A DNA stretch of 64,000 bases. Origin: an uncultured Dehalococcoidia bacterium. GTDB taxonomy: Bacteria > Chloroflexota > Dehalococcoidia > Lucifugimonadales > Australimonadaceae. The notes under the pieces were generated by a model that was not told the origin of the DNA, did no database searches, and saw nothing but the letters and a program-made list of their open reading frames with translations. The stretch spans positions 41,102 to 105,101 of the forward strand of contig CAZLKC010000005.1 in assembly GCA_964560025.1 (NCBI GenBank), written 5' to 3'. Both the position numbers and the translations under genes were made by a program. Below, in pieces: positions 11,100 to 14,017 of this stretch (within the stretch, counting starts at the first letter, position 1; each line of letters begins with the position of its first letter).

Positions 11100-12071
11100 C
11101 TAGGGCGCAGAGGCGCGCCGCCCCCAGGGCAAGTTCGCCCGGTCGGTCGGGTCGAGCAGAATGGGGCTAAGCACCAGCGCCAGGCTCAGCACGGTTACGG
11201 AGATGATGGTCGGCAAGCCGAGCGTCGTGTGGTACTGCGTAACCGCGAGCACGATCAGCGGAGGCATCGCGCCCAGCAGGATGAACAGCCGCCGCGAACG
11301 CTTCCCCACGCTCATGAAGAGCGCCGTGAACGCGGCGAGCGCCACGAACACCGCCGCGGTCGCAGCGTCGGTCTCCAGCGCGCGCACCTGATCGGGAATC
11401 AACGCGCCGCCCCGCCAGTGCAGCAAGAACAACCACGCCGCCATAAAGGGCACCGGCAGCGCCGCCAGCGAACCTAGCAGCCAATCGTAGGAGATCGTGC
11501 GCCGCGCCACCGCGAACACTATCAACGCACACAGCGGCGTCCACGCCGCGACCGCTACGTAGACCGTCGGCGACAACGGCGCCTCCGCGCTCGTGAAGAA
11601 CGCCCACGCGCCGTAGCCGAGCGCCGCCACCGACAGCAGCAGCGTCAACACGGGCAGAATCAGCGCGTAGCCCAGCCATGGCGCGGCCCACTTCGGCAGT
11701 CCTCGGAGCCACGCAATCGCCACCGCGCCCAGCGTAACGAGCAGGGCGACGGACACCCAGAACAACTCCACCCACAGGTGGAAGCGGAAGAGGCCTGCAA
11801 TGGCCAAGTGGGGAACCACGGCCAAGGCCATGTCCCGCCCGCGTGCGATGGCGTGGACAGAGTAGAAGCTCTCGGCTATTTGCTTGGGGTTGCCGAAGTC
11901 GCGGATCGCCCGCTCTTCCGCCGCCTCCGGCGCCATCCCCTCGCTCTCCAGCTCTTCGCGGCGCTCGGCGACGTGGCTGCTCACCTCGCTCATCACGGCC
12001 AAGCGAGTCTGCGGGTCTACGTGGAGCGACCCTTCGAGCGTCTGCAAGTAGGTGTGTGCGTCGTCGGCCAT
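11100..12071 (-). CDS. Integral membrane protein with a PadR-associated N-terminal domain (DUF1700/HAAS-like)
   Basis: N-terminus is MADDAHTYLQTLEGSL…AIRDFGNPKQIAESF, followed by about 7 TM helices. It lies immediately downstream of the PadR gene. Confidence 0.75.
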   Translation of the reverse strand: MADDAHTYLQTLEGSLHVDPQTRLAVMSEVSSHVAERREELESEGMAPEAAEERAIRDFGNPKQIAESFYSVHAIARGRDMALAVVPHLAIAGLFRFHLWVELFWVSVALLVTLGAVAIAWLRGLPKWAAPWLGYALILPVLTLLLSVAALGYGAWAFFTSAEAPLSPTVYVAVAAWTPLCALIVFAVARRTISYDWLLGSLAALPVPFMAAWLFLLHWRGGALIPDQVRALETDAATAAVFVALAAFTALFMSVGKRSRRLFILLGAMPPLIVLAVTQYHTTLGLPTIISVTVLSLALVLSPILLDPTDRANLPWGRRASAP

Positions 12072-12086
12072 TGCGCGGCTCGACCT

Positions 12087-12416
12087 CTAGCGGACAGGCT
12101 GCATGACCAAGTTAACCGCGGCGGAGAAGGTCTGCCACTCGCGGAACTTGGCGGCGAGGAACTTGCTCCCCGCCTCGGTGAGGGCGTAGTAGCGGCGCGG
12201 CTGCCCGTGCTCGGAGGGCGTCCACGAGCCGCGAATCATGCCCGACTTCTCCAACCGGTGCAGGGCGGGGTAGAGCGTCCCCTCGCGGAACTGGAAGTAC
12301 CCGGACGACCTCCGGTCCATCTCCTTCACAATCTGATAGCCGTACATCGGCTCGTCGTTCAGGAGGGCCATCAGCAGGGTCTCCGTGTTCCCCTTCAGGA
12401 GTTCCTTGTCGTACAT
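12087..12416 (-). CDS. PadR family transcriptional regulator
   Basis: LLMALLNDEPMYGYQIVKEM…GTLYPALHRLEKSGMI…RRYYALTEAG. Confidence 0.9.
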   Translation of the reverse strand: MYDKELLKGNTETLLMALLNDEPMYGYQIVKEMDRRSSGYFQFREGTLYPALHRLEKSGMIRGSWTPSEHGQPRRYYALTEAGSKFLAAKFREWQTFSAAVNLVMQPVR

Positions 12417-12612
12417 AGCAGCTCCTCGCTAGGTCAAACTAGCCTATGCGCACCGTAGCGCTCCCGCTGGGGCGCGTCAAGCCTTTGGCTCCCGCGAAAC
12501 GCGCCCCTGCCGACCCGCACCCTACGTCGGGCGAGGCGCCCCGCGCCTGTCTACGGCGTCCGGGCGGTGAGAGCCGCCCTTCTCCTCGAATGCGCCGGAG
12601 CGGGCTTTGCGT

Positions 12613-12748
12613 GAACTTCCGAACTTCCGTTCCAGAACGTCCCAGATCGTCCCATTTGCGCTGGAGGGCGCCGAGTGAAACGGGACGAAATGGGACGAAA
12701 CCGGAAAGGGTTGGGACATTTTGGGACAGGAATCGGACGATTTGGGAC
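12613..12748. repeat. Iteron-like array: GAACTTCC x2, GTCCC x2 on the top strand, then six GGGAC/CGGAC copies at 10-11-bp spacing in the opposite orientation, with nested inverted repeats
   Basis: GGGAC starts at 12682, 12692, 12713, 12723, 12734 (CGGAC) and 12744. GTCCC starts at 12639 and 12649. There is a perfect 10-bp inverted repeat (12648-12657 / 12688-12697) and a 14/16 inverted repeat (12639-12654 / 12733-12748). Confidence 0.7.
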
Positions 12749-12926
12749 AGGGCCGACGGGTCAGGCGGGGTCTGCCTGCGCCGAAGGAGGGCAGACAGCG
12801 GCAGAGAGGCTGAGGGCGCGCGCGGGGGTCATTGAGAGCATCATAGCACGAGTGTTCTGTTTGAGCAATGGCCAATGTCATTCGCAACGGCGCAGGAGGC
12901 CGCCCCGGGCTCGTACGCCAGCGCCA

Positions 12927-13193
12927 TTAGAGCGCTTCGGCGATGGCGAGGCGCAGCAGCAGGATGAGGAAGAATGCGGCGAGGACGGACAGGTCGATGC
13001 CGCTTGTTTGGGGCAGCATGCGGCGGATGGGCGCGACGATAATCTCGGTCAGTCCCACGATTGCCTCGTAGACGCGCATAAAGACTTCGTTGCGCACCCC
13101 CGCGACGACAACCCACGAGAGGATGGCGCGGATGATGAGCATTACCCAGATGATGTCCAGCAGGCGCAGGATCAACACCAGCAGCGAATCCAC
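12927..13193 (-). CDS. yggT: YggT family membrane protein
   Basis: …IIRAILSWV…APIRRMLP…GIDLSVL… is typical of YggT. Its GTG start overlaps the proC stop by 1 nt. Confidence 0.85.
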   Translation of the reverse strand: MDSLLVLILRLLDIIWVMLIIRAILSWVVVAGVRNEVFMRVYEAIVGLTEIIVAPIRRMLPQTSGIDLSVLAAFFLILLLRLAIAEAL

Positions 13194-14017
13194 TACGCCT
13201 TGCCTCCCAACTCCAGCGCGCGGCGGTAGGCCGCCTGCACCGCGTCGTCCACCAGTGCGCCGAACCCTCGCGCCTCCAGCACGTTTAACGCCGCCTCCGT
13301 CGTGCCTCCCTTGGAGGTGACCATTTCGCGCAGTCTAGCGGGCGGTTCGGGCGTCTGCGCGGCCAACTGCGCCGCGCCCAGCACCGTCCGCACCGCCATG
13401 CGCTGCGCGTCAGCCGCGCCGAACCCCAACTCTCGCGCCGAGTCGGTCAGCGCCTCCACGAAGCGAAACAGGTAGGCGGGGCCGCTGCCCGACACTGCCG
13501 TCGCCTTGTCCACCATCGACTCGTCGTCGGCGTAGAGGTGCTCGCCCAGGGCGCCGAGCAGTTCGGCGGCGCGGGCGCGGGCATCCTCACCGGCGGCGGG
13601 CGCGGCGCTCCAAACGCTGAACCCGGCGCCGATGCGAGCGGGAGTGTTCGGCATAGCGCGAATCACCGCCGCGTGGCTCAGGCCGGCGGCGATGGCGGCG
13701 ATGGGCACGCCCGCCATAATTGAGAGCACGGTTTGCGCGGGGGCGAGTCGCCCGCGCAGCCCGGCGGCGACTTCGCCGAACGATTGGGGCTTGACGGCGA
13801 GCACTATGAGCTCGGCGCCCTCGACCGCCGCCGTGTTATCGGAGGTGGCGGTGACTCGGTAGGTCTCGCGCAAGTGGGCGCGCCGCTCCTCCAACGGCTC
13901 AGCGACGCGGACGCTCCGCGCGTCGAGGCTGCCGCGGGCGAGGGCGCGGCTCACCATCGCCTCCGCCATCACGCCGCCGCCGATGAAGGCGGCGCGGCCC
14001 GGGCCGCCCACGCTCAC
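13193..14017 (-). CDS. proC: Pyrroline-5-carboxylate reductase
   Basis: FIGGGVMAEAM Rossmann N-terminus and the C-terminal motif VTSKGGTTEAAL. Confidence 0.9.
   Translation of the reverse strand: MSVGGPGRAAFIGGGVMAEAMVSRALARGSLDARSVRVAEPLEERRAHLRETYRVTATSDNTAAVEGAELIVLAVKPQSFGEVAAGLRGRLAPAQTVLSIMAGVPIAAIAAGLSHAAVIRAMPNTPARIGAGFSVWSAAPAAGEDARARAAELLGALGEHLYADDESMVDKATAVSGSGPAYLFRFVEALTDSARELGFGAADAQRMAVRTVLGAAQLAAQTPEPPARLREMVTSKGGTTEAALNVLEARGFGALVDDAVQAAYRRALELGGKA

Follow-up and report, generated by a model that had tools for sequence, protein, structure and literature searches.

The phased GGGAC array between padR and yggT belongs to an interspersed element whose copy here, at ~12600–12890 on the minus strand of the window (the whole 64-kb stretch of DNA that was analyzed), has no gene of its own (a "solo" copy); the ends of the element are approximate. 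We consider it somewhat better than an even bet that the array represents a TerS-type recognition and leader region copied without its gene and that it serves as a protein-docking array. Because the element stems from a phage-type small-terminase-like (terS-like) gene, whose promoter, leader and initial codons it reproduces, the array is most likely a docking array for the protein of that gene rather than a PadR operator or a replication origin.

A phased repeat array in the padR–yggT spacer

The spacer of 510 bp is bounded by padR (12087–12416, minus strand) and yggT (12927–13193, minus strand), and the host assembly comprises 1.93 Mb in 58 contigs (69% GC, 94% complete). By domain content, the neighboring genes encode PadR (PF03551), a HAAS-domain membrane protein, YggT and ProC. 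The first-pass annotation had described phased repeats with nested inverted repeats at this site, and every one of these features was recovered in the present analysis. The sequence GAACTTCC occurs twice at 12613–12628, GTCCC is found at 12639 and 12649, and GGGAC/CGGAC at 12682, 12692, 12713, 12723, 12734 and 12744; position 12702 has the degenerate version CGGAA. A repeat finder and Tandem Repeats Finder detected the GAACTTCC doublet, the 10-bp repeats of GTCCC and GGGAC, and the nested inverted repeats. The stretch TCGTCCCATTT (12647–12657) is 100% complementary to AAATGGGACGA (12688–12698), and the arms at 12639–12656 and 12731–12748 are 89% complementary over 18 nt. The pattern TGGGACN5GGGAC, with one mismatch or fewer, has six matches in the 64-kb window against ~1.5 expected window-wide, and five of the six lie inside 12629–12748. 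The helical phasing proposed for the repeats also holds: the steps between the seven direct units are 10, 11, 10, 11, 10 and 10 bp (mean step 10.4 bp), and the A/T-versus-G/C periodicity of the window array peaks at 10.6 bp (z = 6.4 versus shuffles). The parts of the window copy, together with two landmarks of the spacer, are as follows.

12840..12880, minus strand: promoter-like box, with TGACAT at 12880–12875, a −35 TTGCTC at 12868–12863, the 17-nt spacer AAACAGAACACTCGTGC, and TG plus a −10 TATGAT at 12845–12840
12750..12839, minus strand: C-rich leader with a variable GC hairpin, in which GTCTGCC (12770–12776) pairs with GGCAGAC (12790–12796)
12682..12748, minus strand: seven direct 10–11 bp units, each a GGGAC/CGGAC/CGGAA core plus A/T spacer on the plus strand (sense GTCCC)
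12658..12681, minus strand: loop leading from the direct to the inverted units, from sequence
12629..12657, minus strand: three inverted units, sense AAATGGGACG ATCTGGGACG TTCTGGAAC, homologous to the start-codon units of the master copies (alignment with C30 and C3)
12613..12628, minus strand: element tail, a tandem doublet of GAACTTCC that takes the place of the first codons (GAAAACGCGAAC-type tail) in other copies
12583..12863, no strand assigned: segment missing from the orthologous spacer of genome G002, by pairwise alignment, exact ends uncertain
12452–12480, minus strand: the promoter of padR itself (TTGACG-N17-TACGGT), outside the element and kept in genomes G002, G005, G006, G008, G010 and G019

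The gene order proC-yggT-padR-HAAS is kept across the family. In G002, a genome of the same genus with proteins that are 88–95% identical, the orthologous spacer measures 222 bp versus 510 bp; it aligns to 12417–~12580 and to the last ~60 bp, with ~12583–12863 missing, and nhmmer found no element either in G002 or at six other syntenic padR loci. Since padR has its own promoter in all relatives, the element represents an addition upstream of that promoter. The ORFs overlapping the spacer (129, 121 and 184 aa) all fall within the segment missing from the congener. The earlier view of the array as probably non-coding holds up. An Rfam scan of 11800–13500 at E <= 10 returned spurious snoRNA and lncRNA matches alone, and a scan for intrinsic terminators found none at the window element. 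A palindrome, GCTAGGTCAAACTAGC, is located at 12428–12443 after the padR promoter, and both are kept in the congener G002. This palindrome is a better candidate for a PadR autoregulatory site than the GGGAC array.

A dispersed family sharing a promoter-like box

The complete element is ~260–280 bp long and, read on the minus strand of the window, consists of a sigma-70-like box, a C-rich leader, six to eight direct units, a loop, and two or three inverted units. A genome-wide search for GGGAC clusters detected four further loci of the same layout, and an nhmmer profile made from these loci returned full-length copies as well as ~10 matches to one end alone; the window copy is itself a full-length match (E 9.3e-64). 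The one-end "partial" matches proved to be further members of the family, having the same box and other unit types. When the box alone was modeled, it was found 31–32 times in the genome under study, 16 times in G002 and 6 times in G001, these two congeners being incomplete (72–76% complete); most other genera of the family have none, and weaker relatives occur in a few genomes of the order. The first-pass annotation had named a common dispersed repeat in advance as one of the findings that would speak against its reading, and a common dispersed repeat is what the array turned out to be, given 13 full-length nhmmer copies in addition to the copies of the box. The ~31 elements of the genome fall into three subfamilies. 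Their layout is kept across copies, the unit cores differ from copy to copy, and the C-rich leader varies in both length and sequence. No published description of the element was found in the literature, and on the search made the family is therefore undescribed.

On the plus strand of the window the shared box reads CCATAG...GCAT.TATCGCAC....GTTCTG.TTTTGGCAAC....ATGTCA, and on the minus strand TGACAT...TTGCCA-N17-GATAAT, often with a TG extension; the consensus used for membership is TGACAT...TTGCC-N17-TAnnAT...CTATGG. The box model (R1) and nhmmer give a minus-strand match to the window at 12814–12882 (E 1e-12 to 1.6e-13), and the window box aligns with 23 other boxes. In a promoter scan, sister copies came out at 9/12 and 11/12 with ~0 expected, and the window copy (TTGCTC-N17-TATGAT) fell below the −35 threshold of the scan. 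The window copy has the layout of the element, namely six to eight direct units followed by two or three inverted units with the same core. On the plus strand, no promoter conserved across copies was found. Over the ~200 nt past the box, the sense strand of all three families contains 42–50% C and 16–25% G in a genome of 69% GC, and Rho is encoded at C3:3321–4574 (C numbers denote contigs and L numbers loci), so these C-rich, G-poor leaders would be good Rho substrates.

Several additional observations were made on the boxes and their surroundings. Family-III elements (C20:12282–12361, C6:31535–31617, C2:168034–168115 and ~10 more) share the box and have GAAACC in the −10 slot; their conserved 3' part, ...CGCGTAAATGGTGCACTTTGGTGCACTTTTCCGCGAAATTCACGCAGGAGGCGGG.ATGCC, resembles an SD plus ATG. 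A REP-type hairpin, CGTTCGCCCTGAGGGAACTCGAAGGGCG, lies directly upstream of the box in many copies (C1:239400–239560, C15:8590–8670 and others, as well as L057, L060 and L062 in relatives) and is included in three of four insertions of relatives. One possibility is that the REP and the element move as a unit; another is that the REP shields the box from transcription arriving from upstream. In G036, which belongs to another family of the order, ~33 box matches were found; there a related box precedes ~150 nt of conserved and apparently structured sequence, and arrays of 10–11 nt units come next (GTAACGGCTC, GTCCCGGCTCC; L030, L044 and L052). The conserved spacer GAAC-N4-GTGC was considered for its resemblance to a LexA box. 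The idea of a G-quadruplex was dropped because G3 runs are missing from most copies.

Comparison of orthologous loci shows that the family turns over. At four loci, relatives hold the element and the genome under study has only 30–75 bp between the same genes, with the REP hairpin often preceding the element. Neither target-site duplications nor terminal inverted repeats were seen at these four filled-versus-empty junctions, the boundaries of which are blurred by divergence; in this the element is unlike transposable repeats of the MITE/Correia type. Orthologous copies of the element are 73–85% identical and their flanks 85–93%. Such copies often have different cores, and a change in the direct units is then matched by one in the inverted units, as in GTAAC/GTTAC here versus GTCGC/GCGAC in G002. 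When pairings were compared across 47 elements, arrays paired better with their own tail (−43.6 kcal/mol) than with those of other copies (−40.5 kcal/mol; p < 1e-4 by permutation), but the ranking is broad. In 19 of the 27 callable cases the gene downstream has the orientation of the element, and for co-directional gene pairs the element points the way the genes do 10 to 1, the gene calls around the copies having been made with ORF and codon-position GC heuristics.

Master copies at a small-terminase-like gene

Two places in the genome retain an intact gene for a 132-aa HTH protein (C3:124137–124532 and C30:3883–4254), each followed by a conserved ORF of ~125 aa (orf2) that matches no Pfam or PHROG family. 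In these complete ("master") copies the promoter box, leader and units of the element lead into the gene, and the inverted units enter the coding sequence and overlap the start codon; arrays run into the start codon in G018 and G022 as well. The start codon at C30 is the ATG of GAAATGGGACGC and sits within a family-I array, and the SD and ATG at C3 lie within GTAGGAGTTACACAATGGTGCAC, which corresponds to the tail GTAAATGTTACACATTGGTGCAC found in solo copies of family III. Solo copies, the one in the window included, end inside the first ~10–20 codons and share a consistent 3' end; their SD and ATG are often degraded, for example from GTAGGAG to GTAAAT. No terS-like gene adjoins the window copy, and a position at the 5' end of a terS gene is a property of the master copies (C30, C3, G018 and G022) but not of this one. 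An origin of the element in the leader of the terS-like gene appears clear.

The gene pair is found in other genera as well (G018 and G022), with two or three tandem 10-nt units across the start codon. The seven G022 copies (L088–L094) are 65–75% identical from about −130 to +950, and their tandem start-codon units are, copy by copy, AATGGCACAC, ATGCAGCAG, AATGAGACC, ATGATGCC, ATGTCTCAC, AATGAGCC and AATGAGCAG. The gene is multi-copy in several genera (5–8 per genome); the cassette is present 5–8 times per genome in one sister genus, 6 times in G018 and twice in the genome under study. So many diverged copies in one genome, as the sister genera have them, are unusual for a terminase.

The assignment of the protein draws on profiles and on its predicted fold, by both of which the family appears small-terminase-like. 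It has 2193 representative members at E < 1e-3. All 54 aligned relatives match the phrog_2538 "terminase small subunit" profile (best E 8.7e-15), and 46 of the 54 match PF13022; the homologous-protein search returned four near-identical relatives only. The AlphaFold2 model of the 132-aa protein (pLDDT 94) consists of an HTH followed by a long helical hairpin. Its best fold match in the PDB is 2ao9, a nonameric phage protein with a TerS-like ring, Sf6 gp1 is placed lower in the list, and those matches in a viral structure library that carry a name are small terminases. When small terminases of solved structure are compared, the similarity is modest to marginal, with TM values of 0.3–0.4 and sequence E values of 0.1–0.4. 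An HTH combined with a coiled coil is the layout of IS3-type OrfA proteins as well.

Other packaging genes are scattered among the relatives. TerL, portal (PF04860) and HK97-type capsid (PF05065) were found in relatives (G001, G018 and G022 were compared); TerL adjoins portal on one contig of G001, and one of the seven cassettes of G022 is followed by a TerL gene (phrog_2, E 8e-35). A search of the 94% complete genome under study detected none of TerL, portal and capsid, and two terS-like cassettes and ~31 arrays are retained there. Packaging would thus be impossible with the resident genes alone. The TerL gene of G022 (G022:C1:2663574–2665160; L079/L092) contains an in-frame insert encoding VVPAEAGTS..., which looks like a translated genomic repeat, and orf2 and TerL are separated there by a small gene pair, one member of which encodes a PIN-like protein.

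Possible function of the array

The A/T-G/C periodicity amounts to 10.5–10.6 bp across 47 elements, the pattern being one of 5-bp GC cores that alternate with A/T spacers, and ~10.5 bp is the helical repeat of B-DNA. Such a period points to DNA as the level at which the array would act; a hairpin has no need of it. Computed from sequence, the periodicity would fit the ~70–110 bp of phased, intrinsically bendable DNA expected for a small-terminase (pac/cos-type) recognition region. The phased array is predicted to form a recognition platform for the terS-like protein, in which intrinsically bendable DNA presenting its cores on one face every 10.5 bp would wrap around an oligomeric ring of weak HTH domains. 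Wrapping of this kind, as proposed for the pac region of SPP1/SF6, would also explain how unit cores drift or are swapped with phasing kept. As just two protein paralogues face at least five unit types, the protein is unlikely to recognize its sites strictly by sequence. In the master copies, the direct units of the transcript would pair with the AUG-bearing inverted units and thereby mask the start codon. The solo copy of the window, which lies upstream of the padR promoter and faces padR, may add regulated read-through or titrate the protein, and it has no specific link to PadR. The weak −35 of the window copy (TTGCTC) and the poor −10 of one subfamily (GAAACC) count against protein docking. 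We would rank the docking array first, an RNA-level leader second as a compatible layer, and a functionless relic third.

The RNA-level alternative holds that the element is a portable promoter with a structured leader or ncRNA and that a DNA-binding protein is unnecessary; it is possible, though we hold it clearly less probable than docking. Such a device would exert translational control in the master copies, and in solo copies the neighboring gene would be preceded by a 5' hairpin of high stability or by a C-rich leader sensitive to Rho. The promoter box is directed into the array, as this reading would have it, and the hairpin predicted for the window sense RNA, formed by the inverted units with the last direct units, has an energy of −43.6 kcal/mol (z = −4.5) and buries AAAUGGGACG. 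The arms co-vary inside copies and at orthologous loci, the orientation of the element tracks that of the genes, and the sense strand is C-rich and G-poor over ~200 nt in an organism that encodes Rho. However, a hairpin needs neither a 10.5-bp period nor six to eight units against two or three, and the hairpin of the C30 master copy is no better than shuffles (z = −0.3 to −0.9). RNAalifold applied to 20 family-I 3' parts gave no register-conserved consensus hairpin, because the pairing register differs between copies. Nor could a strand be assigned: fold z-scores are similar for both strands, counts of G:U versus A:C mismatches are without signal, and the greater fold stability of the plus strand is due to its being G-rich. 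The element also has no Rfam match and no intrinsic terminator. That solo copies are functionless here, as decaying remains of duplicated or recombined terS-like cassettes or as selfish MITE-like repeats, seems to us doubtful. Presence does vary among congeners, the SD and ATG of solo copies are often degraded, the −35 of the window copy is weakened, padR keeps its own conserved promoter, and REP repeats cluster next to the elements. On the other hand, the box, the phasing, the arm complementarity and the 3' framework persist in ~50 copies despite 15–27% divergence of orthologous copies; the shared 3' end in the first codons does not look like random deletion ends, and the 10-to-1 orientation bias in co-directional gene pairs also speaks against a relic.

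One of the suggestions of the first-pass annotation was a cooperative operator for a regulator, PadR or another protein. The idea comes close, since the protein most likely to bind the array is of the small-terminase-like HTH type and is encoded elsewhere in the genome. It is very improbable that the array is an operator through which PadR, or an OmpR/PhoB-type response regulator, controls padR. The array does lie upstream of padR, and 10–11 bp direct repeats are like response-regulator sites, but the array is missing upstream of padR in G002 and in five other genera that keep both padR and its promoter, arrays of the same type adjoin unrelated genes at ~31 loci, the array is downstream of its own promoter box instead of upstream of a −35, and the conserved palindrome at 12428–12443 makes the better candidate PadR site. 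The two remaining earlier suggestions, iterons for replication or partition of a plasmid or phage type and a GGA-rich protein sponge, fared worst and are scarcely credible. Phased direct repeats with an inverted set do resemble iteron and parC layouts, but the copies are dispersed on the chromosome with a Rep or Par gene never adjacent, and their units are 10–11 bp rather than 17–22 bp. Many GGA motifs are indeed present on the plus strand, as a CsrA-sponge sRNA would require, but CsrA (PF02599) is absent from the genome, Rfam gave no match, and there is no conserved plus-strand promoter, the promoter of the element facing the opposite way.

Comparison with known systems helps to place the docking array. 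In P1 pac, clusters of hexamer repeats (4 + 3) flank the cleavage site within the small-terminase gene; these repeats are Dam-methylation sites in coding sequence, present in single copy and without a promoter module. Like P1 pac, the element has its short repeats in two clusters (6–7 + 2–3) toward the 5' side of a terminase gene, but it differs in its promoter module and its many copies. Theta plasmid iterons combine direct repeats with an inverted set at the rep promoter, by the gene of the presumed binder. Here too the repeats adjoin or overlap the control region of the presumed binder's gene and have a paralogue-specific sequence, but they differ in unit size and spacing, have no origin function, are scattered over the chromosome and go with a protein of another family. 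For the pac of SPP1/SF6, which is recognized by the small terminase G1P and spans promoters and the start of the terminase gene, TerS has been proposed to select intrinsically bent, nucleosome-like DNA via a ring whose HTH domains are weak and mostly independent of sequence (PMC4737164). The element has in common with this region its sets of short direct repeats, its presumably bendable DNA with AT runs alternating with GC, and its span over promoters and a gene start. Unlike this region, it is copied ~30 times without the gene, has a regular 10–11 bp period with an inverted complementary set and variable cores, and occurs in a genome where TerL, portal and capsid went undetected. BOX elements of Streptococcus pneumoniae (boxA, a variable number of boxB, and boxC; PMC3049150) are likewise modular, intergenic, multi-copy and strain-variable, with a variable number of internal units and mutually complementary ends, and are transcribed with neighbor genes. 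Their units are ~45 nt and they have no promoter of their own and no known parent gene, whereas the element has 10–11 bp units, a promoter box and a terS-like leader origin. Reuse of promoters before unrelated genes, with copy number and position varying among relatives, is shared with Correia, ERIC and REPIN sequences and "putative mobile promoters" (PMC3575422), but the element carries a phased array and gene-start remnants and had no terminal inverted repeats or target duplications at four sites.

A broader proposal is that the ~30 solo arrays per genome may be working sites, family-I arrays for the C30 protein and family-III arrays for the C3 protein, spread over the chromosome as packaging-initiation sites or TerS-controlled promoters of a domesticated head-and-terminase system of Dehalococcoidia that resembles a gene-transfer agent (GTA). 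We regard this as a long shot; relatives may hold the scattered parts of such a system in their TerL, portal and capsid genes. If true, the choice of chromosomal regions for transfer would be steered by an evolved "distributed pac site" system. For annotation, arrays of this type are not to be taken as local operators of the adjoining gene. If the docking reading is right, an orphan "iteron array" opens onto an undescribed system in which a terS-like control region has been copied dozens of times with its promoter in small Dehalococcoidia genomes. It would then bear on how transcription is rewired in these uncultured bacteria, on the recognition of DNA by small terminases through shape and phasing and not sequence, and on whether host-encoded sites serve a phage packaging machine that has been domesticated.
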